Shown in pieces: positions 1 to 49,196 of a stretch of 64,000 bases of DNA. Both the position numbers and the translations under genes were made by a program. The notes below the pieces were generated by a model. It did not search any database and had not been told where the DNA came from. It saw only the letters and a program-made list of their open reading frames with translations. Position 1 is the stretch's first letter. Every line of letters begins with the position of its first letter. Origin of the DNA: Cyanophora paradoxa CCMP329 (taxonomy: Eukaryota > Plantae > Glaucophyta); assembly GCA_004431415.1 (NCBI GenBank), contig QPMI01000046.1, forward strand, positions 62,001 to 126,000. Reading direction: 5' to 3'.

Positions 1-3000
1 ACCTTGCCGTCGCCGATCACCGAGTAGCTCGCGGGCTGCCCGCGCGCGGACGGTTCCACGAGAGGCGGCCCGACGACCGAAGAGGCCCGGCGAGCTCGTC
101 AGCTGCAGGTTCGAGGGCGCCATGTCCGCGGGGCTCGCGGGCCCGCGCCGGAGCCGGCCGGGTACGAGGCGAGAGGCACGCTGTTGCTGGCGGGGCCCGC
201 GGGGCTGCCCGACGACGACAGCGGCACCACCGAGAAGTACGAGTTGGCCGCCGCGCTCGGGCTGAGGCCCTTGGGCGCGAAGGTGTTGACGCCCGACGGC
301 GAGGCCTTGGCAGTGGCGACCTGGCGGCCGTCCTGCAGTACGCCGAAGCTGCCGCGAAAAAGCGCGTCAGCGCCCGCAGAGACGGCCCCGCGCGCGAAAC
401 ACGGCTGCCGCACCTCGGGACGTTGCCGAGGCCGCTCGGCGTGGTCCACGCCAGCAGCGCGCTCGGGCTGGAGCCGGAGCCCGCCGGCGTCGACGTCAGC
501 GCGATGCCGGAGCTCGGGTCGCTCGGCAGCGAGGCCGCGAGCGGCGACGAGGCCGGGCCCGCGACGCCATTGCTGTCGAACGGCACCACCTGCAGGGTCG
601 AGGCGCCGCCGTTGGTCGGCAGGCCGGAGACCGGGACCGAGGTCTGGCCGCCGGGGACCGACGCGACGGGCTTGCCGTCCTTGAGGACGGTGTACGAGGC
701 GGGCGAGCCCGAGGCCGGGCGCTTCCACGAGAGGGTGGCGGAGCCGGGACCGCTGCCGTTGAAGCTGCTGAGGGCCAGGCTCGAGGGCGCGAGCGGGCTC
801 GGGGCGGGCGCGTCCACGCCAGAGCGGCGATGCCGGCACCAGGGCCAGACGAGGGCCCATACGGGCCCGCGCCAGGGCCACCGTAGCCGGGGGCGCCTGC
901 TCCGCTGTAGGCGGGCGCCGGGCCCGAGCCGCTGCTAGCCGTGTTCGAGGCCGGGCCCACCGCGCCGTTCGCCGCGACCGGCACAACCTGGTAGACGCTG
1001 CCGGGCTCGCCGCTCTTGGGCGAGACGTCGAACGTGGTCTGGTTGGCCGGGACGCTGCCGAGGACCTTGCCGTCGCCGATCACCGAGTAGCTCGCGGGGC
1101 TGCCCGCGCGCGGACGGTTCCACGAGAGGCGGCTCGACGAGAAGAGGCCCGGCGAGCTCGTCAGCTGCAGGTTCGAGGGCGCCATGTCCGCGGGGCTCGC
1201 GGGACCCGCGCCGGAGCCGGCCGGGTACGAGGCGAGAGGCACGCTGTTGCTGGCGGGGCCCGCGGGGCTGCCCGACGACGACAGCGGCACCACCGAGAAG
1301 TACGAGTTGGCCGCCGCGCTCGGGCTGAGGCCCTTGGGCGCGAAGGTGTTGACGCCCGACGGCGAGGCCTTGGCAGTGGCGACCTGGCGGCCGTCCTGCA
1401 GGACGCCGAAGCTGCCGCGAAAAAGCGCGTCAGCGCCCGCTGAGACGGCCCCGCGCGCGAAACACGGCTGCCGCACCTCGGGACGTTGCCGAGGCCGCTC
1501 GGCGTGGTCCACGCCAGCAGCGCGCTCGGGCTGGAGCCGGAGCCCGCCGGCGTCGACGTCAGCGCGATGCCGGAGCTCGGGTCGCTCGGCAGCGAGGCCG
1601 CGAGCGGCGACGAGGCCGGGCCCGCGACGCCGTTGCTGTCGAACGGCACCACCTGCAGGGTCGAGGCGCCGCCGTTGGTCGGCAGGCCAAGACCGGACCG
1701 AGGTCTGGCCGCCGGGGACCGCCGCGACGGGCTTGCCGTCCTTGAGGACGGTGTACGAGGCGGGCGAGCCCGAGGCCGGGCGCTTCCACGAGAGGGTTGC
1801 GGAGCCGGGGCCGCTGCCGTTGAAGCTGCTGAGGGCGAGGCTCGAGGGCGCGAGCGGGCTCGGGGCGGGCGCATCCACGCCAGAGCCGGCAATGCCGGCG
1901 CCGGGGCTCGACGGGCTGGCAGGGCCGAACGCGCACCGAAGCTGCCCGACCCGGACGGACCGCTCGGCGAGGTCGCGCGGCCGGCGCCATCGCCGCGCAG
2001 TTAGACGCCGAGGAATAAGGCCGTCCGATCCCGCCGGCGCGCCGCCGTACCGGCGCCGCTCAGGGCCGCCGCTCCGACGCCGGCGTACGGGCCAGGCCAT
2101 AGCCGGAGCCCGAGCTGGAAGCGAGGTTCGAGGCCGGGCCCACCGCGCCGTTCGCCGCGACCGGCATAACCTGGTAGACGCTGCCGGGCTCGCCGCTCTT
2201 GGGCGAGACGTCGAACGTGGTCTGGTTGGCCGGGACGCTGCGAGGACCTTGCCGTCGCCGATCACCGAGTAGCTCGCGGGGCTGCCCGCGCGCGGACGGT
2301 TCCACGAGAGGCGGCTCGACGAGAAGAGGCCCGGCGAGCTCGTCAGCTGCAGGTTCGAGGGCGCCATGTCCGCGGGGCTCGCGGGCCCGCGCCGGAGCCG
2401 GCCGGGTACGAGGCGAGAGGCACGCTGTTGCTGGCGGGGCCTGCGGGGCTGCCCGACGACGACAGCGGCACCACCGAGAAGTACGAGTTGGCGCCGCGCT
2501 CGGGCTGAGGCCCTTGGGCGCGAAGGTGTTGACGCCCGACGGCGAGGCCTTGGCAGTGGCGACCTGGCGGCCGTCCTGCAGGACGCCGAAGCTGCCGCGA
2601 AAAAGCGCGTCAGCGCCCGCAGAGACGGCCCGCGCGCGAAACACGGCTGCCGCACCTCGGGACGTTGCCGAGGCCGCTCGGCGTGGTCCACGCCAGCAGC
2701 GCGCTCGGGCTGGAGCCGGAGCCCGCCGGCGTCGACGTCAGCGCGATGCCGGAGCTCGGGTCGCTCGGCAGCGAGGCCGCGAGCGGCGACGAGGCCGGGC
2801 CGCGACGCCATTGCTGTCGAACGGCACCACCTGCAGGGTCGAGGCGCCGCCGTTGGTCGGCAGGCCGGAGACCGGGACCGAGGTCTGGCCGCCGGGGACC
2901 GACGCGACGGGCTTGCCGTCCTTGAGGACGGTGTACGAGGCGGGCGAGCCCGAGGCCGGGCGCTTCCACGAGAGGGTGGCGGAGCCGGGACCGCTGCCGT

Positions 3001-18000: not shown

Positions 18001-19330
18001 GCGCTCGGGTTGCTCGGGTTGCCGATGGGCGTCGAGGTGAGGGCGATGCCGGAGCTCGGGTCGCGCGGCAGGACGCTGGCAAGCGGCGACGAGGCCGGGC
18101 CCGCGTAGCCCTTCTCGTCGAACGGAATGACCTGCAGGGTCGATGGGCTGCCGTTGGTCGGCAGGTCGGAGACCGGGATCGATGTCTGGCTGCCAGGCAC
18201 GCTGCCGATGGGCTTCCCGTTCTGAAGAACGGTGTAGCTGTTGGGAGTGCCGTTCTGGGGCGGGCGCCACGAGAGGGTGGCGGAGCCGGGGCCGCTGCCG
18301 TTGAAGCTGCTGAGGGCGAGGTCCGAGGGCGCGAGCGGGCTCGCTGGCATTCCCTCGACGGCAGAGCCGGCAATGCCCGCGCCTGGGCCGATGAGCGGGT
18401 TGTAAGGGCCAGGAGCGCCCATCCCGGGATCGCCCGACGTGGGCAGCGACGGAGGGCCGACGTTGCCGAAGCGGTCGATGGGGAGGACCTGGAACACCTT
18501 GCCGCCGCGCGGCGCGTCGGCGGAGGTCGCGCTACCCGAAACAGTGCCCACGATCTCGCCATCGCTGACGATCCCGTAGCTGGCCGGGCTCCCGCTGGCA
18601 GGGCGGTTCCAGGAGAGCTTCCCGGAGCTGAACATGCCGGGGGCGCTGGTCAGCTGCAGGCCCGTCGACGCCATGGACGGCTGGCTGGCGTTCGGGCCCG
18701 CGCCGGAGCCGACGGAGTACGAAGTCAATGGAGCCTTGCCGCTCGGGGCGCCGATGACCTCGCCGCTGGGCGAGATGGGCGCCACGGAGAACGCCGCTTC
18801 CTCGCCGGGGTTATAGCCGGGGTTCCGGACCGTGTAGGTGTTCAGGCCGCTCGGCGTCGGGCTCGGGGGCTTGACCACGCCGACCTGCTGGCCGTCACGC
18901 AGAATCGCGTAGCCGCCGATGCCGCCCGCAGCGCCGGTGGCAGGCGTGTTCCAGGCGAGATGGCCGCTGGGGTTCGGGCCGGGGCCCATCGGCTGAGCCG
19001 TGAGCGCGATGCCACTGTTCGGGTCCTTGGGAAGGGCCGTCGTGAGGGGGTGCGACGGGGGGCCGGCGACGCCGTTCTCGTCGAATGGAACGAGCTGCAG
19101 CTTCGTGGGCTTGCCGTTGGTTGGAAGGCCGGAGAGCGGGTACTCCGTGCGGTTGCCGGGGGCGGTGCCGATGGGCTCGCCGTCGCGGAGGACGTTGTAG
19201 CCGGCGGGCTGGCCCGCCAGCGGCGGCGTCCAGGTGAGCTTGCCCGAGCCGGGGCCCTTCTCGCCGGCGCTCGTGAGGGAGAGGTTCGACGGGGCGAGCG
19301 GGCTCGGGGCCGGCGCCTCCAGCCCGGAGC
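1..19330 (-). repeat. Coding tandem array of at least 18 units (about 1060 or 1190 bp), each encoding three Ser/Gly/Pro-rich FN3-like modules
   Basis: Recurring motifs LSWKRPASGSPASYTVLKDGK...LQVVPFDSNGVAGPAS, LAWTTP...SFGVLQDG...FSVVPLS and LSWNRP...SYSVIGDG...YQVVPVAANGAVGPAS fit the FN3 pattern W-x-x-P...Y-x-V...V-x-A/P...G-x-x-S. Units are near-identical from 1 to ~12.9 kb and increasingly diverged towards 19.3 kb. Confidence 0.9.
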
Positions 19331-28300: not shown

Positions 28301-31300
28301 GCTTGTTCCCAGTCGGCTCCGTTTCCGGCTTGCCCGAGATGTTGGGACGAGAAACCAACGAGGCCCTGGCCTTCATCGCCTGGATCCACCAGCCTGGTAA
28401 TGGGATTCGGCGTTGAGTGACCTGGCTTTCCTCAGCTGGAATGAACATTGACGGGGCGCCTTTTGTCGACCGGCGGAACTACGCCCGGTCGCGGCGGCCC
28501 CCGCCGCCGATAATGGCATTGGCCGGGTGTCTCTTCGTGTTAACTAGCGACGCAGCAGAGCTAGCTAGCAGGCTAGTAGCAGCGCTCGAGCTCAGGGCTA
28601 GCTGATCGCACGGGCTCCGAATCCAGGTCCCATAGGGCCCTAAAGGCTATAGCTAGCATGCCGGCCCGTCGCCGCACGCTGTACGTAGCATGCCTGGCTC
28701 TAGAGCCTCTTGCTAGCCCCGCCGCCCCCGGTACTGGCCGTCACCAAGGTGCTCGCAGCCCCCTTGCCAACAACGACTGTCACAGGTGGCAAATTGCCTG
28801 CCTCTGCATACTGGGAGGGCGTCAGCGGGGCGGGGCGGGGCGTCGGCGGGGCGGGGGCGGGGCGGGGCGGGGCGGGGGCGGGGCGGGCTAGAGCTAGCGG
28901 GGGCGGGGCGGGGCGGGCTAGAGCTAGCGGGGGCGGGCGGGGCGGGGCGTCGGCGGGGCGGGGCGGGGCGGGGCGGGCGGGGGCGGGGCGGGCTAGAGCT
29001 AGCGGGGCGGGGCGGGGCGGGCTAGAGCTAGCGGGGCGGGGCGGGGCGGGCTAGAGCTAGCGGGGGCGGGGCAGGGCGGGGCGAGACTATAGCTAGCGGG
29101 GGCGGGGCGGGGCGGGCTAGAGCTAGCGGGGGCGGGGCGGGCGGGGCGAGACTATAGCTAGCGGGGCGGGGCGGGCGGGGCGAGACTATAGCTAGCGGGG
29201 CGGGCGGGGCGGGGCGAGACTATAGCTAGCGGGGGCGGGGCGGGGCGGGCTAGAGCTAGCGGGGCGGGGCGGGCGAGACTATAGCTAGCGGGGGCGGGGC
29301 GGGGCGGGCTAGAGCTAGCGGGGGCGGGGCGGGGCGAGACTATAGCTAGCGGGGGCGGGGCGGGGCGGGCTAGAGCTAGCGGGGGCGGGGCGGGGCGAGA
29401 CTATAGCTAGCGGGGGCGGGGCGGGGCGGGCTAGAGCTAGCGGGGGCGGGGCGGGGCGAGACTATAGCTAGCGGGGGCGGGGCGGGGCGAGACTATAGCT
29501 AGCGGGGGCGGGGCGGGGCGGGGCGAGACTATAGCTAGCGGGGGCGGGGCGGGGCGGGCTAGAGCTAGCGGGGCGGGGCGGGGCGGGGCGCACTTCAGGC
29601 AGCAGGTTCCAGTAGCGAGTGGCGACCGAGCAGAAGTTGACGAGATCATCGAGGTTTAATAACTTGACAATGCGCAGGACGGCATCATCCGGCAACTGTG
29701 GCGCGTGAGAAGAAGAGATACTGTGCGCAAAGAAGAACGCACATCATCCATACACGGCGCATGCTGTGACCGCGAGAGGCGAGGGGTCAGAGAGGCAGGC
29801 AAGCGCGCGCCGCATGCCGCAAGCTGCTTCCGCACCATCTCGCCGGCCTCCGCCTGCGGCACGGCCGCACCGCCGGCGGCAGAACCGCTCTGAGGCCGGG
29901 AGCATCAGGGGAGGGAGAAGCGCGCGCAGAACGATGTTTGCGCACCCTCTGCTGCTCGTTCGTGTGCATCGCGGCCGCCGGCTCGCGCCCGGGCTGCAGC
30001 GGCGAACCGTCGTCATCGCCGGGAGGCTTCCTGGCCTGCACACGCTTCGAGCGCCTCGGCTCGAAGCCGGTATCCTCCTCCTTCTCCTCCCAGCGCCGCC
30101 GCTTCTCCGGCGGCATGATGCTGGTGCACGCGAGGGGTACAGGGATGCGCGCGCATCGACGTACCCCCGGCGACCGACTGACTCGCCGGCGGTGCAGCGA
30201 GCGCCCCCGATCTGGACAGCGGCCCGCGGTGCGAACGATGGCGAGTGCTTCCGTGCGCCAAACGTGCGCGCTGCAGATGACGAAACGGCGACGGAGCCCG
30301 AGCCGAGACGACGGCAGCACCGCCGCCATCGACTTGTTCACGGTGCGCGGCTGCCGATAGATAACCACGCGCCGAGGCCTCAGCCGGTGCCCCGCAGCCC
30401 CTGCCGCGCGACATCTTCTTCCGCATCGTGGCATTCTGTGCGAGCCCGCTCTACACGCTCTTCTGTGTGCTGGCCAGGGCGTGCAGAACGTTCCGAGATG
30501 CCGTGAGCGCTCAGCCAGCGGCGCCCGGGGCCCGCCCGCGCGCGCCGCGCGCGCTCATGCGACGACGCAGGCTCGGGCCTTCAGGGCGCCCCGCGTGATC
30601 TTCCGCGTCGAGTGCATGAAGTACCACCTGCCGTTCTCCGGCGATGTCGACATCCGCGTCGGCACCTTCCGCCAGGTGGGCGCGCCGCGCCCGCAGTGCG
30701 ACCCAGCTAGCTCATGGGGGCGCACAGGCCGTCGATGTTCTCCTCGGCCGCGTGCACATGTCGGCCGCCAGGTTTAAGAAGAAGAGGAGGACCGCGATGA
30801 AGCTCATCGTCTTCAAGCGCGACGTGGTCGAAGGCGACCCGGATCCACGCCGCTACGAGGCGAGAGGCCCCGCCCGACCCGCCCCCGCCAAGCCCGCCCC
30901 GCCCTGAGCGCCCGGCGGGCGCCAGGCTGTCAGCGCATACCTGCTCGAGGGCACCTTCACGGAGGTGACGGAGGTGGTCTTTTCCCTCGACCGCGTGGAG
31001 GGCGTCCTCGCCCACCTGCCCCGGTTCCTCCTCGCGAGGCGGCCCGGGTCGATCGAGATCCGCTTGACGCGCGAGGGCTTCACCGGCCGCGGCAGGCCCG
31101 CGGCCTTCGCCCTCGTTGAGTACCTCATTCGAGCCGCCGCCGCAAGCCGGGGGCCTGCGGCGCTCAACTTCAGCGTCAGCACGTGGGACTACACGACCGG
31201 CAGCCTCCCGCCGTTCATCGCCGCCGCGCAGGAGGACGACTACTTCATCGTGAACACCGGCCTCACCGGGCACAGCATCCCGTCCAACGCCATCAACAGG

Positions 31301-34300
31301 GTGCGCTCGGGCGGGCGGGCCCCGCGGGCGGGCCGCTAAGCTCGCTGCCGCAGCTCGGTTTCAGCATCGACGGCCCTGCGCGCCCACCGGCCCCGCCGCC
31401 TCCTCCTCCTCGACTGCGCCTCGCCCGTCGCGCCGCCCGCCCTTGCCGCCCTCGGCGCCAAGCACGTGTACTCCCCCCCCTCCGACGACTCCTCGTAGCC
31501 CGGCGCCCGCCCCCCGTTCCCCTCCCCCCGCAGCTTGGACCGAAGCTTGAGCCGACTTTCGATCTCACAGCACGACGAAGGGGTAGGGGAGGGGGGAGAG
31601 GCTGAGGGGCACCGAGACCTCCCGGCACTTGTACAGGATGAGCTGGCGGGGCGGGCGAGCGGCCATCGCAGCGAAGAGCTCGAACAGCGGCTCGGCGAGG
31701 CGCCCCATGTGCGCCCTGCGGCGGCGCGGGCGTGTGAGCAGCGGGCGGGCGGGCGGGCGGGCGGGCGGGCGGCGCAGCGCGGCTCGCCCGGCGACATAGA
31801 CGATGAGGGGGTGCGGGCACTCGAGGACGATGCGGCTGGCCGTGCGGATGATCAGGGGGGCTTCGGGCGCTGCAGTACGTGGCGCCCTGGGGGGCCACCC
31901 CGACGCAGCCCACCAGGGGCGTCTCCTTCCCCACGACGCACCAGCCCGGCTCGCACAGGCCCGTCTTGGTGCACTCCCAGCGCCTCACCCCCGTGGCGTT
32001 GGCGCACTGGATCTTCATCTCTCCCGGCTTGCAGCCGTTGAGGCAGAAGTCCCTCCTCGGCGTGCAGCGCGTCTCGTCGGCGCACCCCGTGATGGCGTAC
32101 TCGTCGGGGAGGCACCCGTTGTTGCAGCGGCGCAGGGGGCCCGCGCACGTGGTCTCGTCCGTGCACCCGCTGATGGGCCACTTCCCCGGCTCGCAGCGGT
32201 TGCCGCACAGCTTGTCGGCGCTGCAGACGGTCTCGTCCACGCACCCCTCGATCGGGGCCGTCCCCGGCTCGCACCCGCTGAAACACTCGCCCTTCCTGCT
32301 GCAGCGCGTCCCGTCGAGGCAGTCCTTCATCTCCACCTCGCCGGGCAGGCACTCGTTCTCGCACACCCCCGGCACCTCCGAGCACACCGTCCCGTCGAGG
32401 CAGCCGTCGATGGGGAAGAGGTGCGGGGGGCACCCGTCGAACCGCGAGCACTGGGTCGGGCAGCGCGGGTCCGCCATGTTGGGCGCGGCGGCGGGGCACC
32501 CGTTGCGGCAGATGTTCGGGTCGGCGCCGGCCGTCACGCACTCGCCGGCGGGGCTCGCCGGCGTCCGGCAGTTGTTGCGGACCGGGGCCGACGCGGGGCA
32601 CCCGTTGAGGCACACGTCGAGCCGGGGGCCTTCCGGCACGCACTCGCCGCACTGGTTCTTGATCGGGCGGTCGGTGGGGCAGCCGTTCCGGCACCCCCCC
32701 AGGGCGGTGGAGCCCGTGGGGACGCACTCGCCGCGGGGGTTGGCCGCCGTGACGCACCCGTTCCGCACGAAGTCGCGCGGGCAGCCCGTCGCCGCGCACG
32801 TCCCCTGCTCGAAGGAGCCCGCGGGGACGCACTCCTCGCAGTCGTCCTGCTCCTCCCCGGGGGGGCACGGCGTGCCGGACGCCTCTACCGACGCCGAGCT
32901 TGCGAAGAAGGACGCAACTCGCATTCTGAACAAGGCGATGTGGACGTCGCCAGACTCGGTCACCGTATCCACTGATACGACCTGGTTTGCTACCCTATAA
33001 TTCGGCATCAGCACCTTGTCGTGATCGGGCGGCAAGGAGTAGATCTCGAGGCGGATGCGGGCGAGCCGCCCTGCCGAGACGTCTGCAGGGGCGATGGGCC
33101 AGCCCTTGTAGTAATTCGAATTCGACGTCTCGTTGTATTTGACGAGCACGCTATTCTGCACGGTGGAGGTCTGCCCGCCACGGGAGTGAGTCAGGCTCCC
33201 CCCCCAGAGTGGAAACGGCTGGGAATCTTGAGTCGTCTTCAGAGACTCGAACCCCGCCCAATTCCAAGCATCGTTGATCGAGACCAGCATGCGGATCGCG
33301 CCGAGGGCGTCCGACACGTCCCTGTCGAGCATGCACCAGATGGAGACACGAACGACACGGTACTCGCTGAAGTAGTTGTGCGGGATAAGGAGGCTGCTCG
33401 CGTTGGGGGCCAGGTCACCCGCAGCAAGGAGGCGCTCGCCGACGGAGGGGCCGACGACGGGGCCCCGGACGATAAGACCCCCGTCGAGGAAGAGGTCGCC
33501 GTTGTTGGAGAAAGCGGCCTTGCCCCCCGCAAACGTCAGGGCAGTCGACGAGGGGATCCGCAGCCGCGCGTGGTGGCCGAACACGCCGCCTCCCACAAGC
33601 ACATTGAGGTCGGGCGAGTAGGCGGCGGCGCTGAAGTTGATTGGAGCCTCCATCTCGGTCCAGCTGATACCATCCGTGGGGCGCCAGTCCTCGGGGTCGA
33701 GCGCGAAGGAGTAGACGTAGATCGGGCGCTTGGGCACGGTGGTGTGGTGCTCCGACGCCCGGGGAGGGACCGCAATCACCCTGCAGGCCGCCCCCGCGGA
33801 CCCAGCGCTCCGGGACGACGGGTGGCCGGTCTCATACGCGGACGTCCGGGGCGGCCGCCTCGTGCGCATCGAGCTCGAGATCTACACTGTGCCCCCTTCG
33901 CACGCAGACACCGCCCTGGTTGGCATCCTTGTCGATACCCACAGCGTTGGACCCGACGAGGTCCCCTGTCACACCACCGGCCAGCTGGCCCTGTCCGCCT
34001 CTGCCACCCTCCTCCACGGGCTCCGCATCCAACCCTCGGCTGGGCGCAGGTTCCTTTCAGGCTCGTACTGCGTTTTGGGGCCATTGCCCGCCTGTTCCCG
34101 GGGACGGCGGGGGGCGTGCCGGACGCTTCAACTGATGCCGAGCTCGCGAGGAAGGATGCAACGCGGATCATGAACAAGGCGATGTGGACGTCGGCAAGCA
34201 GGTCGGGGCGGCTGCAGCCGGTTATTCAGCACGAATGGGGGACATGGATGAGGGCGAAATCAACACGCACATTCTCGGGAATGACATGGGCCGGTCCACC

Positions 34301-37300
34301 GCTTAATTGCTACTTTGCAGTGACGGCGAGGGGCGATGATGTTGAAGACGAATACTCAATCGCATCTGACATGTTCGTCCTGGGCAGCCGTGATGGAGGG
34401 CATTCGTGGGAGCCCACGGTTGAAGCCCGGCAAGGATGGGATGACAGCGATTTTAACCCAGAAGGATTCAGATGCATCGTTGCATCGGGAGATGGCCATG
34501 TCTTCGCCTTGAGTCATCCCACGAATTCCTACTGGGGATCCCAGCACCATGTCAAAATCATCGAGACTGTTGATGGGTCCACATGGTCGGTTGTCTCAAA
34601 CGTGACATGCTCGAGCAATGACGGTAATTATTATGAATCTTCCTATGCCATTTACAGGGTTCTCATCTATGTGCCCGAGCTGAAGGCAACTTTCTACTTT
34701 GACGACTACAATGCGTACAGGCGGTCTGATGGGGGGGAATGGGAGGGCGGGTCCCTCGTGGATGGTGTCGACGTAATTCGCTGGTGGGGTGCAACATCCA
34801 TCTTCTACTCCCCAGTGCTAAAGAAGCTCGTCGCCCTGTGTTCGTGGTTCGTACGCACGGAAAACCGCGGCCGGCTTGTGACGGGGCCGCCGGCTGGCAG
34901 GACTCGCCGGGGGCGGCGGCGGCCTGGGCGGAGTGCCCCCAGTGCCCCCGCGGCGTCTACAACTGCTGCCCCCCGCGCCCGCCCCAGCGCCTCGTCATCG
35001 AGCCGTGAGGGCGGGGCCTCTACCGCCGGGCCGCCGCGGCGGCGGCCGCCGCCGGGCGCTTCGGCGCCCCCCTCCGGCTCGCCGCCCGCTTGGCCCTCTT
35101 CGCCTGCTCCAGCTCCCGCACGCCCTCTAGTGTGTACTCGCTCAACCGGGCCCTCTGAAGAATCCTTTCCATAGCCTGCGTCGCCGCCCGCTGGGCCCTG
35201 AGCGCGGACCACTCGGGGTGCAGGCTGCGGACTCGCAGGTACTGCGCCAGGTACAGGTGCTGCAGGGCCGACTCGCTGAGGGCGCGGGGCCGCCGCGCGG
35301 GGGGGCGCTGGTAGGTCATGGCTGTTTATTTGCTGCGAGAAAAAACGGCGCCCTGCTCTAGTAAATTATCAGGACCAGGCCGTCGCCTCCGGTCCGCACG
35401 TTGTAAACCGTGGACCCCTTCCCGCACGGGGAGACGTAGTCCGGGTCTGTGGCGTTGCCGGGGGTGTCATATGAGGCGGCGGATGTCGTACCACCGGTCA
35501 CGACCGCGCTGCCGTAGTAGCTGGAGCCCCCGCCGCCGCCGTAGTAACCGCCACCGCCGCCGTAGTAGCCGCCGCCGCCACCGCCGCCGTCTGCCCCCGC
35601 GATGTCCCCTCCCGTGTACTTCGAGCCGGCTGTGCCGTTTGCCCCGGCGTCACCGCCTGCGGCCTGGGTGCCGCCGCCGCCCCCGGTTTTGGACATAATT
35701 ACTTGGATACCCGTCAGGCCGCCGCCGCCGCCGCCTCTCTGGAAGTAACCCCCGCATGCCCCACCGCCCGCCGTGATGATGTCGTCGGTGCCTCCCTGGA
35801 CCCGGATGGCGGACCGCCCGCCCCCGCTCCCGACGTTCGTCTGGGACGCCGTGCACCGCCCGCCCCCGCCGTAGGTCGCGAGGTGCGCGTTCGGGTTGGG
35901 CCTGCCGCCCTGCCCCACGATGATCACGTAGGTCGCCCCCGGCGTTATCAGCGGCTTCCACTGCTCAACGTCGCGCTGTCGCCGCTGCTCCTCCTCCTGC
36001 TGATGCTCCTGCTGCTGCATCGCGACGACGACGACGATGCGCGCGCGAGTCAGTTCGTTGTTGCGCTACCCCCCCCCACTCCCCCCCCCCTCCTGCATCA
36101 GTGTCGTCGTCAGCCGGCCAACCGGCAGCCGCACCGGGCGCAGACGCCGTGGTGTATGAGACATCCGACGAAGCCGGGCTACAGGATCGTCTTCAGCAGC
36201 ATCAGCAGCGGCGGCAGCATGCCGAGCGAAGTCGACGCTGAGGTGGTCAGGTTGGGACTGGTGCGCGCGATTCATCTGCCTGAATCCGCCATCCGCCTGA
36301 TGATGCACGCGCGCCGGCCCGCAGCCCCGTGCGGGGCGCCGACGGCAGCGTCGGGGGCGCGGCCGGGCGCGGCCCGGTCCGGATCCAGCGCCGCCTCGGG
36401 GCGGGTGCGACGACGGCCGCCGGGGAGGGTCGATCGGCGGTGATGGGGCCGTCGGCCGGCGGGCGCCACGGGCACCGGCGGCGGGGCGGGGCGGCGGGCG
36501 GGGCCGGGGCGGGCGGGGCGGGCGGCGATGACGGTCGTGATGTCGGCGGCGGGGAGGTGGGCGCCGGGGCGCCGGGTGCCGGGGGGCGGGGGCCGGGGCG
36601 GGCGGGACGGGGGCCGAGGGGCGGGCGGCGGGGACGGGCGGGGACGGGCGGGCGGGGGCCGGGCGGACGGGACGGGGGCCGAGGGGCGGGCGGCGGGGAC
36701 GGGGCGGGGACGGGCGGGCGGGGCCGGGGCGGACGGGACGGGGGCCGAGGGGCGGGCGGCGGGACGGGCGGGGGCGGGGGACGGGGCCGGGGCGGCGGGC
36801 GCCGGCTGCTGGGTTAGCGCCGGGCCGGCCGCGGGCCGGTGCCGGAGCGGCGGCCGGGCGGGCGCCGGGGCGGGAGCCGGGTCGAGGGCGGGGGTGGGGC
36901 CGGGGGCGCCGGGGTCCGGACCGACCTTGAGGCGGAGTTTCAAGTGGTTGGAGGCGGGGTCGGCGGCGGCAGGCGGGCCGGCGGGAGGCGACGGAGAGCG
37001 CGGGCGCTTTGCCGGGGGCGGCGCCGACAAGTTGAGGTTCCTGAAGATTTCCTCACGAAGGCGGCCCCGGCACGCTGTGCAGGAGGGGCTGCTGCCCCCG
37101 TCGAACCGGGAGCGCATCATCGCGCACCCCGTGACGTATTGGTCGATCATGTCCAGCATCGACTTGAACTGACCGGAGCAGTGCGCGTGCACGTGCTTTC
37201 CGCAGCGCACCCCCTTGCACCTGAGCATGAGGAGCACCAAGGAGGCGATGATGAACTGCGCCTCCCTCCGGTACCTGCTGGTGAACGTGGGCTCGCGGAT

Positions 37301-39123
37301 CTCCAACATCGCCCTGGAGCATGCGGCGGCCGAGGCGGCCGCGGGGCCGCAGGCGGCGGCCCCGTGGTGGGCGGCGGTCGCGGCGGCCCAGGCGCAGGGG
37401 GTCGCGGCGGGCGTGCCCCGCCTGCGGCGTGCACTGGGTCCAGGCGGCGTCCGACTCGTGCCTCGCCTGCCGCCTCGGCCGCGATGCGGCCCCGCGCTTC
37501 GGCGACCCGGGGCGGCACGCCGAGGAGGCTGCTGCCGTCGGGGATGCCCTCGCGGCCTCCGCCTGGCGCCCCGTCTCCCCCGACATCGTCTTTGCGGCGC
37601 GCGGCTCCTGTGCCCCCGGGAAAGGCGCCCTCTACCTCCCCGATTTCGTCTTCTCCCTCCCGCACGCTATCTTCTGCCTCGACATCCTCACCAACTGCCA
37701 CCGCGACGAGCCCCCCAGCTTCCGCGAGATGCGCGAGGACACCTACCAGAGCCTCACCACAATGGAGCGCCCCGTCGTCTTCCTGTACACCAACTTCGGC
37801 TCCTACTTGACCGCCGGCGCCCGCCTGCGACGTCAGGAGGACCCTCCCGGCACACGCTCTCTGCCATTTCGACCCCCCCCTATGCACTCGCCCGCCGCGC
37901 CGCTGAGAGGAAGCCTCAGCATCAATTACCCCCACATCTTCGTTCGTCAGCTGGAGGAGTCGGGCCTCCTCGCGGCCCTGCGCGCCCGCCCGCCCCGCCG
38001 CATCGTCATCGGAAGCTTCAAATCCTCCGCCGCGGCCGCGGCCGCCGCCTTCCCCAGCCTCCTCGCTCTCGGTGCCGAGGTTCAGCTAGCCGAGGTTGAG
38101 CTAGATTAGAGCCTTCTCCATTCATTCACGGCACATAAACAGCCCCTGTAAAGAAGGGATACCAGCGGGCGAGGACCCGGGCCCACCACGCGTGGGTCTC
38201 CGCCTCGGGCTCCTCCACGAGCGGCATGATGAATGCGGCAAGGGCGGGGGGCGGCGCAGGGTAGATCCCGTCCACGAGCGGAGCGCTGGGGGCCGGCCGA
38301 GTCGGAGAGCCTCTTCGGCGCCGTGCGGGCCAGCAGGCAGCAGTAGTTTAATGCCGTGTGATATCAAAACCAATCGCGTCACCTGCACCTCCCACTTTTT
38401 CCCAGCCAATATTATCCATGACCGCAACGGCCGCTGGGCGGGGCGTTTAAGTCGACCTGCGCCTACGGCACTTGCGGCTCTGGACGGCGGCCTTCTCCAT
38501 AATCGCTTCCTCGGCCGGCTCGAGTGCGCTCATCAGCTCCCTCTCGCGCCGCTCCTCCTTGATCTGGACGTGGGTCCTGCGCCGCTTCTTCTCGGGCGTG
38601 GGGGCGCGGGGGTCCTGGTCCTCGCACTCGGGGCGGGCGTTCGGGCGGTCGCAGTAGTAGCTGACGACGACGGGCCCGGCGCCGGCACTGCGGCGTTTGG
38701 CCTGGAGTTTGGCGGCGTCCATGCGGGCGAGGAGGCGGAGGGGAGTCAGGACGCGGGCGGGGTTGGGGCGGCAGCGGCCGCGGCGGCCGCGGCGACGGCG
38801 GCGGCCTCGAAGGCCGGCCCTGGCGCGGCGGCCCCGGCAGCCCCGGCAGCCCCGGCAGCCCGGCAGCTCCGGCCCCAGCCCCGGCCCGGCAGCAGTTGTG
38901 GGTGGCCCGATCCTGCAGCTGTGGCAGCAGGCCGCGGCGCCCGCTTCCACAACCATTGAGATCCTGCGACAAGCAGCCGTCGTTGGGCGGGCACGACAGC
39001 GTCCGTCAGCGAGGTCCAGCGTGGCTTGGCGGCGAGCCTGGCCGTCTCGATGTACATCGCCATGTCGGAGTCCTACCAGCTGCTGCTTGCGGGCGGGGCC
39101 ACGCCGCAGCTGGAGGAGCAGGA

Positions 39124-39165
<42 letters not shown>

Positions 39166-42100
39166 ACCGACGGGCAGCGCGGCTGCGGGCGCGGTCCCGC
39201 AGCCGGGGGAGGAGGCGGCGTCGGTGGCACCCCCCCGGCCGCGCGCCACGGAGTGCGTCAAATGCCGGGAGCGCCTCCCCGCGGTGGCCCTGGTCCCGTG
39301 CCGCCACGTCCCCGTCTGTGTCGAGTGCTGGGGCCCGCACGTGGCCGGGCGCACCTTCAGCGACGAGGGGGCGGGCATCGCCTGCCCCCACCCCGGCTGC
39401 GGCCTCCGCGTCGACGGCGCGCTTGTCGTGGTCCTGCCTTAGGCAGCTGCAGCGCGTGGTGTGTGTGTGTGTGTGTATTTAATTTTCCACTACAACACGG
39501 CGCTAGCTAGAAGCATCGATATCCGCTCTTCTTCGGCCGTGGCCCGCTCGAACTCCTGGCGCTCTTCCGCTGCCCTCGGCCCGTCATCGTCGTCGACTGT
39601 ACCGGAACCAAGGAGGCGGTGCAGGCGGTCGATGCTCACGGGTTTGTGGGGTAGGCCGTAGAGCAGGTGCCTGATGATGAACTGGCGCTCCTCAAGGAGG
39701 CGCTGAATGCGGGCGGGCGGCCGGCTGGAGTGTATCGCTTCCACCGCCCGCGGGCTCAGGAGGGTGGCGGAAGGGTGGCGCCACCCGACGTCCAGGGCGG
39801 ACCACCACGCCCCCGGGTTCGCCCGAATGAGGCTCGCGATGAGGGGCGTGCCCCACCTTTTCCGGCCGCCGAGCCGGGGGAGCCCGGGGGGGGGCCGGGG
39901 GGGGCCGCAGGGGGCCCGCCGGGGGGCCGGGGAGCCCGGGGGGGGGCCGTGAGGCCCGCCGGGGCCCGGGGAGCCCGGGGGGGGCCATGGGGCCCGCCGG
40001 GGGGCGACTGGTTCAGCCCCGCTGTGAAGGTCGACGGGTTGCGCACCGAGTAGCCTTTCGCAGTGCCAGGCTCCTTGGGCTGAATGGCTGCACAGGGAAT
40101 TAGGCAGGAGACTTTCTGAAGATTCCGTTGTGATTCACCTAGGTGTCCTCGGATCTGTTGTAATTCGCGAATCTGTCAGCTCGCGAATTCTAATAATAAA
40201 AAAACTAAGCTTCAAGTTCCAAGGCACCTCGAAAAGAGGCATGAACTGCTGGTGCTGGTGCTCTAGACAGTACCTGCAGCATCCCGCTCAGTCCTGGATC
40301 CAAAAACGCGACGAACACTCAAACGGACAAAGTCGTCTGCCAAGTAGGGCTTTCGTCCCATAGGCCGAAGCGCGTGTTGGCAGTTGGATCGAAAGGAGTG
40401 CCCGGTTTAGATGTCGAAGCGGTGGCCGGATACGCTCGAAGATTGTACTGGAGCTCCCTAGGCTTTTGTAAGGTATCATAACGGAGCGGACAAAGCAAGA
40501 GCTGACCCGGCGATGTGCCCTAGCCACCTTGGGAACGCCGAACCACCCGCCTTCACGTTCGGATAAAAAACAGAACTTGAATCGGGTAGAGTACGGCCTG
40601 GATGGCAAGGCTCGACACGCCGAAAACAGAAACATGCATCTACTCGACACTAGATGCGTACCAGTCTCTGATTTAAAAATCGGGTAGTTCGCGGCAGTGG
40701 AATGCCGCTCCCTGCATCGAAAATCGAATGCATTAATTCTCGTTGGTAGAGAAAAGAGTTTCGTGTAGCAAGCCTACGGACCCGAACCACTTGCTGAAGC
40801 CGAGTGCGAAATCTGCCACAATTGCAATGCGATATTGATGGGAAAACACAAAGCCAGGACAGAGAAGACGCACTATCCAATCCAGGGGCCGCGACCTTGT
40901 TCCAGCTCGGATCGTACGTTGTTGCGAGCTGCGATATAACTCAGAGTGCGCCATGCTTTTCGATTACGGTCGAAAACTGTGCGCACTGAAAACAAGCCTG
41001 TTGTAGAAGAAGAAGAACGCAAAGATGTCAAAGATGGCTTTCAAAAAAAGCGGGACAGAGGACAGAGGTGAAACACGGGACAGAGGTGAGCTCACCGTCT
41101 GTGACATCCGTACGCCGAATCCTGCACATGGTTTAAGTAGAGCTCTGTGCAGATCGCAAGCTTTTCGTACCTCAGGCACCACTGGAGTGCAGAATTCGAA
41201 GTCGCGTCGGCGTGGGTTATCACCGAGAAAACCAAGAGAGGAAAGGCACGCACTGCATCGTACACGAGAATTGGTTGATCGCATTCGACGTACACGTCAA
41301 GGGTTTTGCTTGTAGGGTCTGAATTGCGCATGCTGTGTCAAAATTCGAGAATTCGCGTGCTGGTGCAAGTTTGAAAGACAAGGGACCGACCTCGTTTGGT
41401 ACCATCTACGATCACATTTTGTTTGCAAATGCCGAAAAGCGGAAAATCCTTCGGGCGAGTCTTTCGCGGGCATGTGCATTAATTCCAATGCCGTGCTCGA
41501 CTGATTTGAAGGAAATGTGCATGTACGTGTACCTTATAAACACCGCTAACTTTCGTCGGCAGCTGGAAGGCCACCCCCACCTTCTCCTGTGCTTTGCACT
41601 CTTTCGCATACGCTGTCGTAACCGTCGTGGCGCAAGGCCAACCCTTTCCGCTGTCGCCACGATTCGATTTTACAATGGCAACCTGCAAAACCCGTACTTG
41701 GTCGAGAGACAGGCACGATCGCGAGAGCAAAGTTCATATATATATATATATATATATATCATCATGGGCACCCGAAATTCGAGGTTGGTAGGAATCGTGT
41801 CATTAAACCCTCCGGCTGTTTTGAATCCACTCTTTGTATCCGGAAAGAAAAGTCTGAAGACCTTCATTTCGATTTTGAAACAAGTGTGCATGTACATGTC
41901 TTAGCAACGCACGTGAAGTAGACAGAAGTGATGTTGATTGGCGCATTCATGTACCGCATACTGCGCGAAGATTTGAATAAATAGTATTGGCAAATAGGCT
42001 TCTAATTAAGCATGTCATTTTAGGCTTCCGAAAGCACAATTGTAAATTTACTTACCAGTAGAAGAAATCATCTGCAAGACGTCGAAGAGCAACGATTATG

Positions 42101-42849
42101 GGTATGGATGCAACCAATTTCCGAAATATCGATACTCACTTGTCGGTCCGCGGGCCTCGATGACCTTCCCATCTGCCTGGTGGGTCGCAGGTTCTCCCGT
42201 GTCCGCATCGGATAAGAGGCAGTATTGGTTGTAGCGATTTTGTGTATCCAATTCCCAGTAATTTCCAATTCGAGCTTGGTCTGCGCATGCGCATGCGCAG
42301 TGGTTATATTAAACGTTTTTAACACAGGAGTTGCTGGAGTGAAACGGGGCTAGGCGCACGCATGTAGTAGCTGCTCTCTTGCGAACTTTTCGTCAATCCC
42401 GCCGGTTCGCCGCCGGCCTTAGTGCCATCTCCCTTCAAGTAAGTCGAGATGATTGGCTTGTCGCCTGGTGCGCCGTCCGAGAAGCGGATGCCTGGTCGGC
42501 CCTGAACACCACTGCGCCGTCGCAATGCGCCAGCCAGATGAGCTATCGTCTAGAAAACCAAATTCTCGCGCTCCTCTATGTTCGCGCGCTCCTCTATGTT
42601 CGGAAGCTTATGCATGTTCGGAAGCATTTGCACGATGCACGGGCACAGAATTCGAAGCAAGATCTAGATCTAGAGGACGCACACGGGGCCCATGTCTCCA
42701 GCTGTGCGGGGATCTTGACCCGCCGCCGCGTGCGAGACGGACAACACGAACGCCGACGCGACGAAGATCGCCAAGATGATCGAGGCCAGGCCGCTGGGCC
42801 GCGGCCGGCCGGCGACCACGCGCCGGCAGGAGCCGGGCGCGCCCGCCAT
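1..42849 (-). CDS. Giant multi-exon single-pass membrane protein gene (signal peptide, FN3-like/REJ-like/GAIN-GPS-like ectodomain, TM, tandem FN3-like array); interrupted by the 26262-40004 insertion; 3' end lies beyond the window start
   Basis: ATG at 42849 gives MAGAPGSCRRVVAGRPRPSGLASIILAIFVASAFVLSVSHAAAG (signal-peptide-like). Co-oriented minus-strand exons with GT-AG introns continue to ~40002 and resume at ~26264 in frame. Intron 19590-19648 joins the upstream exons to the TM exon. Not all exon boundaries were resolved. Confidence 0.7.
349..413 (-). other. 65-nt phase-2 GT-AG intron, repeated in each homogenised array unit
   Basis: Minus strand GTGCGGCAG...GCTGAC(branch-like)...TTTTTCGCGGCAG. 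Removal joins GNVP-S-FGVLQDG and explains the frame switch in the ORF track in every unit. Confidence 0.9.
19512..19580 (-). other. Transmembrane helix of the giant protein
   Basis: ILPLAFGIGAAGLLVAGLTAAIV followed by basic residues KGTLRVPSIFPKGK (positive-inside pattern). Confidence 0.8.
19649..20530 (-). CDS. Exons encoding a degenerate GAIN-B/GPS-like membrane-proximal region
   Basis: IDGLADSKPIIIEIP...FLIFWNETSSSWEPC resembles the GAIN/GPS lead-in (PIxIxIP...FW...W..C). No canonical H-L-T/S cleavage motif is seen. Confidence 0.45.
21780..22420 (-). CDS. Exons encoding a REJ/PKD1-like module
   Basis: TSFTVTCSNWKPP...LPLSYSLK and AYVFPVGTHELTATIC resemble the REJ motifs T-x-F-x-x-x-C-x-x-W...PL-x-Y and LP-x-G... 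Confidence 0.55.
23150..23300 (-). repeat. Coding minisatellite, about 4 copies of TPPPGGDTGG(G)V (Pro/Thr/Gly linker)
   Basis: Direct repeats of ggcgtaacccctc(ctc)ccgtatcccctccgggcggt; ORF 23058-23402. Confidence 0.85.
26262..26291 (+). repeat. Left terminal repeat of the insert: (G7-8 TACA)x2 plus G7
   Basis: ggggggggtaca gggggggtaca ggggggg directly at the junction. Confidence 0.85.
26344..26886 (+). CDS. Hypothetical intronless protein, 180 aa (insert cargo)
   Basis: ATG-initiated ORF with strong GC3 bias and non-low-complexity sequence; no family recognised. Confidence 0.65.
   Translation: MPPAGAAAAGGGGAEIFPLRGGPATLLGALALALNPGLGVGALFGIRMDPSQYAEVEVEPGAIPLEACIAATSGLDEVAPICVSDDGRYLVVCSDCGDVVTVCRAEVVGDVDMWAAAPPRVVYRRVGTLKFYIGNEVFAGAADAFRSFRCWVVEERREIYFAWNRENVRMYRLPGLLAAG
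27220..28416 (+). CDS. Hypothetical protein, probably two exons (ORFs 27220-27708 and 27769-28416)
   Basis: Two co-oriented globular-looking ORFs separated by an intron-like stretch (gctgac branch motif, poly-T, tgcag at ~27714-27748); exact donor unresolved. Confidence 0.5.
28826..29590 (+). repeat. G-rich satellite: (GGGGC)n interspersed with GCTAGAGCTAGC and GAGACTATAGCTAGC units
   Basis: Directly visible ~760 bp array. Confidence 0.95.
29594..30116 (-). pseudogene. F-box gene 5' part (3 exons), apparently truncated after the F-box
   Basis: LPDDAVLRIVKLLNLDDLVNFCSVATRYWNL is an F-box pattern. ATG at 30116 (MPPEKRRRW...). A donor GT at 29593 leads into the satellite with no clear downstream exon. 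Confidence 0.65.
30278..31860 (+). CDS. Intron-containing hypothetical gene, 3' truncated by the fragment patchwork
   Basis: Exons join as ...VGTFRQ|AVDVLLG...PRRYE|AVSAYLLEG...NAINR|LGF, with a GC-AG intron at 30860-30925; start uncertain. Confidence 0.55.
31862..32868 (-). CDS. Cysteine-rich repeat protein fragment (CxNGC-P...GCxDxTxC repeats)
   Basis: About 335 codons of regular Cys repeats within ORF 31293-33869; intronless, with no native start or stop. Confidence 0.7.
32950..33673 (-). pseudogene. Fragment of a virus-like BNR/Asp-box (DGISWT) fibre-type protein
   Basis: DGISWTEMEAPINFSAAAYSPDLNVLVGGG...GDLFLDGGLIVRG...; a paralogous segment lies on the opposite strand at 33820-33906. 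Confidence 0.5.
33674..33752 (-). pseudogene. 26-codon fragment resembling the C-terminal motif of the NCLDV major capsid protein
   Basis: EHHTTVPKRPIYVYSFALDPEDWRPT matches the capsid motif HHT-x-x-P...I-x-x-YSFAL-x-PE-x-x-x-P-(S/T)G. Confidence 0.75.
34110..34865 (+). pseudogene. Fragment of a BNR/Asp-box beta-propeller protein (virus-like)
   Basis: SRDGGHSW, TVDGSTW and RSDGGEW Asp-box-like motifs, plus YSPVLKKLVAL; intronless, lower GC, no own start or stop. Confidence 0.6.
35020..35319 (-). CDS. Small basic hypothetical protein, 99 aa
   Basis: ATG preceded by A-rich AAATAAACAGCC; 38 bp downstream of the Gly-rich ORF stop (compact, virus-like spacing). Confidence 0.55.
   Translation of the reverse strand: MTYQRPPARRPRALSESALQHLYLAQYLRVRSLHPEWSALRAQRAATQAMERILQRARLSEYTLEGVRELEQAKRAKRAASRRGAPKRPAAAAAAAARR
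35358..35955 (-). CDS. Glycine-rich domain protein, C-terminal part (ALK/LTK-type Gly-rich domain, common in viral fibre proteins)
   Basis: TPGATYVIIVGQGG...GGGRSAIR...AGGG...GGGGYYGGGGG...GGGGSSY...GGDGLVLIIY*; the 5' end is fused to unrelated sequence. Confidence 0.75.
36272..37309 (-). CDS. Hypothetical protein with Cys/His-containing N-terminal region and Pro/Ala-rich repeat tail
   Basis: 345 aa ORF with CKGVRCGKHVHAHC...CTAC followed by PAARPSAPVP repeats. Confidence 0.45.
   Translation of the reverse strand: MLEIREPTFTSRYRREAQFIIASLVLLMLRCKGVRCGKHVHAHCSGQFKSMLDMIDQYVTGCAMMRSRFDGGSSPSCTACRGRLREEIFRNLNLSAPPPAKRPRSPSPPAGPPAAADPASNHLKLRLKVGPDPGAPGPTPALDPAPAPAPARPPLRHRPAAGPALTQQPAPAAPAPSPAPARPAARPSAPVPSAPAPPARPRPVPAARPSAPVPSARPPPARPRPSPPPAPRPPSRPPRPPPPGTRRPGAHLPAADITTVIAARPARPGPARRPAPPPVPVAPAGRRPHHRRSTLPGGRRRTRPEAALDPDRAAPGRAPDAAVGAPHGAAGRRACIIRRMADSGR
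37400..38109 (+). CDS. Zn-ribbon plus degenerate PD-(D/E)XK endonuclease-like protein (NCLDV-type)
   Basis: CPAC...CLAC, then YLPDFVFSLPHAIFCLDILTNCH...RPVVFLYTNFGSY, paralleling RPD...EVDExQH...P-x-VFIRFNPD-x-Y of giant-virus nucleases; start uncertain. Confidence 0.5.
38447..38722 (-). CDS. Small basic/charged hypothetical protein
   Basis: MDAAKLQAKRR...EKKRRRTHVQIKEERRERE; intronless. Confidence 0.35.
   Translation of the reverse strand: MDAAKLQAKRRSAGAGPVVVSYYCDRPNARPECEDQDPRAPTPEKKRRRTHVQIKEERRERELMSALEPAEEAIMEKAAVQSRKCRRRRST
39026..39442 (+). CDS. C3HC4 RING-finger protein (C-terminal RING)
   Basis: CVKC...LVPCRHVPVCVEC...CPHPGC...VVVLP*; true start uncertain. Confidence 0.8.
39490..39744 (-). 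CDS. Small hypothetical protein, ~84 aa, convergent with the RING gene
   Basis: Intronless ORF ending 47 bp from the RING stop across a (GT)n/AT-rich spacer. Confidence 0.4.
   Translation of the reverse strand: MEAIHSSRPPARIQRLLEERQFIIRHLLYGLPHKPVSIDRLHRLLGSGTVDDDDGPRAAEERQEFERATAEEERISMLLASAVL
39874..40004 (+). repeat. Right terminal repeat of the insert: three ~40-50 bp units CCGGGGAGCCCG8-9CC...GGCCCGCCG4-6
   Basis: Units at about 39874, 39927 and 39966; the last ends exactly at the junction G-run. Confidence 0.8.
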
Positions 42850-48200: not shown

Positions 48201-49196
48201 CCGACTGGCGGCGGTGCTTGCTTCCGGCTACTAGGCTAGCAGCTTCGCGAGATTGCGCACTAGATGGGGCGGCGATCTAGATCTGCAGCCGCTTCTGTGC
48301 CCGGAGATGTCGTCCCTGGGCGAGATTTCCTGCCGTCGGACGCCCAATGCACGTTCTCATCGTCGTGCACTGGCGGAATTTGCTTACGTTGTCCGCCCGG
48401 AGTCCGTGAACACTTCTGCTATCGCAGAAGCTTGCTTCGTCATGTTCGGCAGCACAGTCGCAGCATCGCCACGCAGGGCACTTACAATTCAGCAGTGAGC
48501 ATGCGTGCGCAGTCTTCAGTTGGCGTGCAGCTGTCTGAAATTATATATATATATTGCATACACAGGTCGCCGCAGCTGAAGACCACAGAAGTCCTCCCAC
48601 AGGCTTATCGTCACATTTTCCTCTGGCGGTACCCTCTCGTTAATTGACATGCATATCCCGCCCGCATTGACGTGTACGCTCAGCCTGGAGCGTTTCAACT
48701 TCCTGAGAGGAACATTGGAGCAGAGCCGGCCCGTCAAATCAATCAGGTTTGCGATAGACTGATATATTCATTTCGAATAATGTTAATGACTTGTTCCTCC
48801 AGGCTTTGCCACCATCGTCGATCGCAGTGCGTGATGAAACTCAAGAGACTTAAAAAAGCTTATTCAAATTGCTGAAATGCTGTGCAGGAATTCTCAACCT
48901 CCTCGAAACGCGTGCGCTGCAATGGGAGATCAGCTGATCGTGTATCGTTTTCGGACGAAAACGATCTGAATCACGCGGACGAAAACGATCTGAATCACGC
49001 TGACTCAAGCCCCGAATTCCGCATTCCGAATTCTCAATCCCGAACTCATGGTCCCGATTTCCGCGAAAGCGAATGCGCATCCCGCGAAACTGAGCCATCC
49101 GTGAGCCGGGAAGTGCAACGGCTCGGTTTCCAACATCCCGGGCCGCATTGGAGAGCGGTGCGCCGTTTGGCACCTGGTCCTTAATGCTATCCCTCA

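Follow-up and report, generated by a model that had tools for sequence, protein, structure and literature searches.

A predicted single-pass REJ/GPS protein of Cyanophora paradoxa with a giant FN3-like array on its putative cytoplasmic side

Layout of the locus

The window analysed here, a stretch of 64,000 nucleotides of Cyanophora paradoxa CCMP329 (contig QPMI01000046.1, positions 62,001 to 126,000), consists of eukaryotic, GC-rich and intron-dense DNA, and its minus strand carries, in this order, a hydrophobic N-terminus (42849), a match to the REJ domain, a motif of the GPS type, one transmembrane (TM) helix and 18 triplets of FN3-like modules that reach the window edge. A sequence-only reading had proposed for this locus a REJ/GAIN-like receptor with a giant FN3-like array on the cytoplasmic side; this reading is partly supported by the present analysis, in which its order of parts and its predicted topology are upheld. 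Its span of 1-42849 as one clean gene was not upheld: a 13,746-nt insertion (26257-40002) splits the ectodomain, and in this assembly just 10 of the 17 complete array exons keep an open frame. The first array exon, which is also the TM exon, is 100% identical to the EukProt model tig00000180_g13624 (P0003), whose accession is that of C. paradoxa; the paralogues discussed below are likewise known as public gene models only, not as proteins. No homology to the array or the ectodomain was found in the 42.9-64 kb part of the window.

Exon 1 (42683-42849, minus strand) begins with the ATG at 42849 and encodes a predicted signal peptide, the hydrophobic core of which (Kyte-Doolittle 19-residue mean of 2.5) agrees with the N-terminal signal claimed earlier. 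The predicted 5' ectodomain exons (40003-42682, minus strand; about 500 aa and about 17 short introns) come from a provisional self-trained parse and from donor density, GTG[CA]G[TC] donors occurring at 3.16 per kb on the minus strand versus 1.40 on the plus strand. The predicted middle ectodomain exons (22415-26256, minus strand) come from the same parse and include a tandem Gly/Pro/Thr repeat at 23167-23297. This automatic parse is provisional throughout and mis-parsed the GPS region; the resulting ectodomain model has about 1,900 aa and 47 Cys.

The FN3-like array

Between 19589 and the window edge, the minus strand holds the array as 18 units of 963-1,190 nt, each composed of modules A, B and C (triplets with Gly/Pro/Ser linkers at 1-19320). 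Motif counts give 18 starts for each module, the last C being truncated by the edge, and 17 introns of 62-98 nt lie at the same place in module B, the first unit having none. The 54 modules and the exonic length of 18,443 nt (about 6,150 codons) confirm the earlier estimate of more than 50 modules and over 6000 aa continuing past the edge, and the modules described there as Cys-free indeed have no Cys in the 1,216 aa of P0003. Units 7-18 (window 1-12700) are 94-100% identical, introns included, with short and long linkers alternating in a higher-order pattern that points to recent unequal crossing-over or to partial assembly collapse.

Judged from sequence profiles and a predicted structure, the array modules are FN3-like. 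The Pfam fn3 profile scores 30.1 bits in the first array exon and 53.8 bits in P0003, against a cut-off of 25, and 19.3-23.2 bits, below the cut-off, in the next three array exons scanned singly. In an AlphaFold2 model built on a 7-row alignment (mean pLDDT 61.8), beta-strand domains tightly joined within a triplet are separated by a low-confidence linker, the module A blocks having pLDDT values of 68-93 and modules B and C lower ones. Foldseek returned a best match at E 2.8e-11, the top matches being FN3 chains from fibronectin, cytokine receptors, myosin-filament proteins and titin (A84-A86 included). The prediction of a repeat unit, which the sequence-only reading had suggested as a check, gave a fold matching FN3: in a VIA structural alignment, module A superimposes on the Robo3 FN3 domain with a Z of 12.4 (rmsd 1.9, 92 residues aligned). 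Modules B and C were matched structurally only via multi-domain alignments (model range to 313-318), and they align with A at the L-x-W, Y/F and G-P-x-S positions. A hidden Markov model (HMM) of 180 non-Cyanophora domains scored 20-67 bits on 10 of 10 modules, reversed controls staying at or below -0.1; these domains were picked with module A1, which makes the module A scores circular, and modules B and C scored 20-45 bits. The Atlas likewise pointed to fn3/Ig-type clusters at 0.93-0.94, a result of weak recognition value.

Coding state of the array

Purifying selection acts on the array, as dN/dS is 0.20-0.46 in every one of the 36 pairs that the nine open internal exons form, and 0.20-0.36 among the distal open exons. 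The first seven of the 17 complete exons are among the ten that are open in frame, and the remaining seven are out of frame. In the non-open exons, 23 one-base deletions are explicit, of which 22 fall in homopolymer runs (these runs make up 48% of the bases), and two further frameshifts inferred from variant blocks bring the number in the distal repeats to about 25. All are confined to units that are 94-100% identical; between array exon 15 and its twin there are 2 substitutions, as against 10 single-base deletions. Because the deletions cluster in homopolymer runs of near-identical units, these distal frameshifts look like unpolished long-read consensus errors. The published C. paradoxa assembly is based on PacBio data corrected with Quiver and Illumina reads (PMC6704402).

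The seven out-of-frame exons, together with the 13.7 kb insertion in the ectodomain, could alternatively be explained by a decaying pseudogene with a distal array of non-coding tandem DNA, the giant protein never being made. We give this explanation only a very small chance, considering that the one-base deletions lie in homopolymers, that exon 15 differs from its twin as described, that distal dN/dS is low and that 41 modules are present in the 4,803 aa of the paralogue model P0010; even so, the window copy may have been killed recently by the insertion.

REJ match and GPS-type region

Of the REJ/GAIN-like ectodomain proposed earlier, the REJ part is supported by Pfam, as a partial profile: PF02010 matches within one exon (22312-22169, minus strand) with an E of 4.5e-9 and 35.9 bits against a cut-off of 25, and the match spans only profile positions 315-356 of 452 (42/452). 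A PDB search with the open reading frame (ORF) carrying this match gave none, Pfam gave none for the two 5' ectodomain ORFs (40003-42682) or the four middle ones (22415-26256), and neither lectin nor PKD domains were detected in the ectodomain. The GAIN/GPS part is recognized only by its motif and by alignment with paralogues. From position 20496, a chain with six introns (59-72 nt; five GT-AG and one GC-AG) is stop-free and in frame into the TM exon. It comprises the predicted GAIN subdomain B and GPS exons (19901-20496), a predicted micro-exon of 6 nt (19831-19836) flanked by introns of 64 and 65 nt and followed by the GC-AG intron, and an exon of 117 nt, phase 0 at both ends, for the last predicted GAIN strand and the stalk (19649-19765), all on the minus strand. 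The spliced chain reads F-W-N...W-E-P-C...C-T-H-L-T-T-F, in which the Thr-Thr pair, including the putative GPS nucleophile, derives from the micro-exon. By eye, the W, W, C, C and H-L-T of the GPS consensus are present, and they are conserved in P0005, P0009 and P0087.

Aligned with the N-terminus of P0009, the GPS-to-TM chain has 98 of 190 residues identical (score 401 vs a shuffled maximum of 58), and with P0005, 47 of 101 (222 vs 53); the chain was set by hand with the paralogues in view, and these scores are thus partly circular. The GAIN fold combines a helical subdomain A with a subdomain B of 13 strands. When a model of residues 1-132 of P0009 (pLDDT 47.3) was compared with 48,161 chains, GAIN proteins occupied 4 of the top 50 rows (Z 4.1-4.7, rmsd 3.8-4.0, 93-105 residues aligned), the top row being a dextranase with a Z of 8.0. 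The same poor model had no Foldseek match at E 0.001, the Atlas lead for the P0009 GAIN fragment was ZU5 (0.88), and a protein search with residues 1-200 of P0009 recovered only P0009 itself. The GPS consists of the last five strands of the GAIN domain, with conserved Cys and Trp and a cut between the last two strands, and occurs in protists (PMC3321182). Autoproteolysis is predicted here between Leu and Thr of H-L-T, and the cleavage residues exist only in transcripts that include the 6-nt micro-exon; its skipping would leave the frame intact and give an uncleavable isoform.

A family of related models in C. paradoxa

A search of 1.84 billion representatives yielded 82 matches, among which the 12 proteins at E < 1e-40 are all C. 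paradoxa models, as judged from the style of their accessions and ids. The next-closest relatives are bacterial-type multi-FN3 proteins with 28-36% identity, and a bacterial origin of the FN3 module is possible. The family models hold 3 to 41 modules, and many are fragments. A TM precedes the array in P0002, P0003, P0005, P0007, P0009, P0015, P0086 and P0087. In three models (P0005, P0009 and P0087), C-T-H-L-T-T-F, TM and array are joined in one chain that ends in a short S-F-Y tail; these models have no Met where the TM exon of the window starts. The sequence-only reading had called for a paralogue search and had regarded a second TM as fatal to its topology, and these three models show none through their ends. 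The architecture of GPS, TM and array is likely real.

In P0015 (tig00000396_g24884), about 3,200 aa of Cys-free TIG-like repeats precede one TM and then related FN3 modules, so that the tail of TM and array is reused behind another ectodomain. P0015 would thus have giant repeat chains on both sides of a single membrane. Only fn3 was found by Pfam after the TM of P0003, P0005 and P0009, with no PLAT; I-set and kinase had no Pfam match in P0001-P0015, and in those paralogues whose end is visible, the array is not followed by any catalytic or signalling domain. Other Pfam matches on paralogues (SAMP2, MRP-S28, PA-IIL and similar) were rejected, since they were sums of weak matches to the repeats in which no single stretch passed. 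P0006, P0008 and P0013 share a conserved C-terminal C-x-x-C ... A-A-M-L tail, possibly a lipid anchor or a metal site.

A second copy lies on the same contig: P0086 (g13646) is identical to P0003 at 1,176 of 1,247 positions (94%) and is continued by P0001 (g13646/g13647). A search of sequencing runs with 17000-26300 listed no RNA run, a result that carries no information on expression. In sequencing runs compared over 16900-26700, the contigs of X1 and X2 cross introns and are therefore DNA; X7 yielded a single contig of 260 nt, which lies within an array exon, and X8 yielded no contig. Variant DNA contigs differ by 18 synonymous and 5 non-synonymous codons, and 4 of the 5 amino-acid differences are those of P0086, so that they most simply represent this second copy. 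One X1 contig ends at 26235 and the next one shown has a depth of 9.9 vs 38.6; contig depth is no measure of copy number, and nothing is drawn from it.

The 13.7 kb insertion

The insertion (26257-40002) has a GC content of 0.71 versus 0.52 and 0.55 in its flanks, with steps at about 26260 and 40000. A GCC direct repeat borders it, and no inverted repeat was detected at its termini. Its ORFs, some virus-like and some host-like, are mostly intronless. Pfam matches include a Gly-rich ALK/LTK-type ORF (E 2.6e-9), a RING ORF (E 2.6e-6) and an F-box-like ORF (E 5.4e-4), and an ORF of 858 aa combines Cys-rich repeats with a 27-residue Capsid_NCLDV match at E 0.0062, below cut-off. No full major capsid protein, packaging ATPase, polymerase or integrase was found among the insertion ORFs scanned with Pfam, which is weak at detecting divergent proteins of Polinton-like viruses (PLV), and two insertion ORFs had no relative in a phage collection and viral contigs. 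The insertion may be a non-autonomous mobile element of viral derivation. About 760 nt of 30-31-nt GC-rich tandem repeats (28825-29590) lie within an apparent intron of the F-box-like gene, and a spliced gene inside an otherwise intronless insertion suggests captured host DNA. The insertion also contains an 84-nt direct repeat (32869-32952 and 34113-34196, 86% identity).

Because the 5' and 3' exons share strand, GC level and donor density, they likely belong to one interrupted gene. When the insertion is removed in silico, the last 5' exon continues into the first 3' exon in one of the three frames, a 59-nt intron at the insertion site being an alternative to this read-through; with the insertion in place, the read-through frame stops at 39758. 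The insertion probably disables the window copy, leaving no full-length protein. The working gene may instead be the second copy, P0086.

Topology and the preferred reading

The 23-residue TM helix (19580-19512, minus strand; hydropathy 2.11) is conserved in P0002, P0005 and P0009. The 15 residues before it include 1 K/R and 2 D/E (net negative), and the 15 after it 4 K/R and no D/E, in accordance with the single TM followed by basic residues that had been claimed. By net charge, K/R residues are more abundant after the TM in 5 of 6 cases (the window, P0002, P0005, P0009 and P0007), and in the arrays of P0003, P0001 and P0010 hydropathy peaks at 1.08-1.21, vs 2.11 for the TM. The topology is most likely type I (N-out/C-in) with a cytoplasmic array, as predicted from sequence, and it would apply family-wide, because three paralogues have GPS, TM and array in one chain that lacks a second TM and because the shared tail occurs behind another ectodomain. 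Our preferred reading, with a probability of about 0.55, is a single-pass REJ/GPS protein whose at least 54 FN3-like modules lie in the cytosol and form a long structural tether beneath the cell surface.

Several results weigh against this reading. Neither GAIN nor GPS had a match in Pfam (E up to 10) or PDB sequence searches, and the P0009 1-132 model mentioned above is poor. The 5' exons are linked to the rest of the gene by a self-trained parse and a one-in-three frame match; no paralogue extends over the junction at the insertion, and the exon after it had no match among 136 candidates. The C-terminus of the window copy is outside the window. In the public models P0002, P0003 and P0086, the TM-exon Met is the first residue. 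The arrays of P0005, P0009 and P0015 have hydropathy windows of 1.73-1.79, which we read as Ala/Gly/Val-rich strands or linkers; by K/R count the P0015 TM is not followed by more basic residues than precede it, and its charges are ambiguous. Two of 11 arrays (P0003 and P0002) have more N-glycosylation sequons than their shuffled versions. The nearest non-Cyanophora relatives scanned combine several FN3 with domains of a carbohydrate-related or surface kind, and such proteins are usually extracellular.

Two rival explanations draw on these results. The TM exon and the array could form a separate gene with an N-terminal signal anchor, the REJ/GPS exons belonging to another, as the start of the three public models at the TM-exon Met would suggest; however, the stalk exon and this Met are just 59 nt apart, across a GT-AG interval in phase 0, and P0005, P0009 and P0087 cross the junction with no Met there. 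We regard this as very improbable, and even in that case the charge bias would still place the array in the cytosol. Alternatively, the topology could be reversed and the array extracellular or lumenal, as in a surface coat, mucocyst or hair protein, which would account for the sequon excess in P0003 and P0002, for the bacterial-type multi-FN3 relatives and for the ambiguous charges around the P0015 TM. This is improbable in our view, since the hydrophobic N-terminus, the REJ match, the Cys-containing GPS-type motif and the 47 Cys of the provisional ectodomain all precede the TM, the four K/R follow it, P0003 has no Cys and in 9 of the 11 arrays sequons are not enriched at p < 0.05; the window array has 15 sequons vs 9.1 expected (p 0.04), in repeats that are not independent.

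Discussion

Under the preferred reading of a membrane-anchored cytosolic tether, the N-terminal signal would direct entry into the endoplasmic reticulum (ER), the ectodomain of about 1,900 aa would lie outside, the single helix would stop transfer and the array would remain in the cytosol. Cleavage at the H-L-T motif would leave a C-terminal fragment made of one strand, the stalk, the TM and the array, holding the ectodomain non-covalently. At about 4 nm per FN3 domain, the array would be a beads-on-a-string chain of at least 200 nm, with stiff triplets and flexible Gly/Pro/Ser linkers of two lengths. Many repeated sites of low affinity might attach it to the cortical skeleton (alveoli, epiplast plates or microtubules), and load could then pass from the ectodomain inward until the GAIN joint, acting as a force-limited joint, lets go. 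Such a shear-release model has been proposed for adhesion G-protein-coupled receptors (GPCRs) and microbial MAIN proteins (bioRxiv 10.64898/2026.05.12.724683). Cyanophora has no wall, and its cortex comprises alveoli, epiplast plates, sutures and subtending microtubules (PMC6212826; PMC6704402). The inferred placement of the family in this cortex is that of a candidate only, and a titin-like spring would be an analogy.

Allowing for the uncertainty of the architecture, a tether function of the array has roughly even odds. With the topology as predicted, the array could instead be a non-load-bearing multivalent scaffold or rigid spacer, the GAIN joint serving only in shedding or maturation. The modules are tight within a triplet and under purifying selection, and the cytoplasmic FN3 domains of integrin beta-4 and RIM-BP serve as binding platforms; nevertheless, the size, the homogenised recent expansion (units 7-18) and the alternating linkers would fit a length-setting tether better than a specific adaptor, and we consider the scaffold unlikely.

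Going beyond the tether, the family might represent an independent glaucophyte linker of titin scale that spans the membrane, connecting a polycystin-like, self-cleaving adhesion ectodomain directly, without a G protein or a channel, to at least 50 bacterial-type FN3 modules in the cytosol, forming sutures or struts between plasma membrane, alveoli and epiplast, and carrying interchangeable ectodomains (REJ-GAIN or TIG); this extension is doubtful. A GAIN-type joint followed by one helix and a purely structural cytosolic chain would be a new use of this joint, passing force directly to the membrane skeleton, and the family supplies candidate proteins for the unexplained cortex (alveoli, sutures and plates) of a wall-less glaucophyte, in a lineage central to the origin of plants. 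To our knowledge, little is known of the output of GAIN domains outside adhesion GPCRs and polycystins.

The sequence-only reading had taken REJ-GAIN proteins to be normally multi-pass. Single-TM REJ-GPS proteins are in fact known, and the anomaly at this locus is the tail, not the one TM: sea urchin SpREJ1, SpREJ8 and SpREJ9 have REJ and GPS upstream of one TM, the order predicted for the window gene, they likewise lack the multi-pass part, and the available text describes no giant FN3 tail for them (PMC1934368). The REJ of the window gene is partial, and no lectin or PKD was detected beside it. Polycystin-1 (PC1) and Ectocarpus Esi0130_0068 also have REJ and GPS in their ectodomains, mechanosensing having been proposed for PC1. 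However, PC1 has 11 TM, with PLAT after TM1 and a channel-like region, and the Ectocarpus protein 6-7 TM, whereas the window gene has one TM, followed by FN3 in the position of PLAT. In adhesion GPCRs and microbial MAIN-domain proteins, a self-cleaving joint of the GAIN type, as predicted for the window gene, links an adhesive ectodomain to an anchor (PMC3321182; bioRxiv 10.64898/2026.05.12.724683). In the former a 7TM region follows GAIN, whereas the window gene has one hydrophobic segment only; the latter are described as wall-anchored with no cytoplasmic part. GAIN outside 7TM proteins is also reported from non-holozoans.

As regards the tail, very long cytosolic chains with FN3 super-repeats are found in the titin A-band, twitchin and myosin-binding protein C, but these proteins have neither a membrane anchor nor an ectodomain, and the sequence relatives of the window array are bacterial-type fn3 proteins, not titin. 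Titin also has Ig domains, PEVK and a kinase; none of these parts was seen in the window gene, the C-terminus of which lies beyond the window. Integrin beta-4 has four cytoplasmic FN3. Like the window prediction, integrin beta-4 (1qg3) and FNDC3A/B are membrane-anchored with FN3 on the cytoplasmic side, FNDC3B in an ER-bound cytoplasmic form with nine FN3 and a C-terminal anchor (PMC12907209). Their 4 and 9 FN3 compare with at least 54 here, and neither has REJ or GPS. Full-text searches of the literature outside subscription journals found neither a REJ/GPS-TM protein with a cytoplasmic FN3 array nor this family described, although supplementary domain tables could list the models; the words 'fibronectin' and 'receptor' are absent from the main text of PMC6704402. 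As far as these literature searches reach, the novelty is a post-TM FN3 tail of unprecedented size on a known REJ/GPS single-pass type.

Other features of the window

Outside the gene, dispersed non-coding repeats of 50-177 nt with 75-96% identity occur at 47338-54178, and an intronless ORF of 364 aa lies at 49893-50987. Two intron-rich genes follow, assigned from their motifs: one at 59300-61100 (minus strand), which we take to resemble a protein with LRR and ankyrin repeats, and one at 62000-63000 (plus strand), presumably resembling an AAA ATPase of the spastin/VPS4 type.

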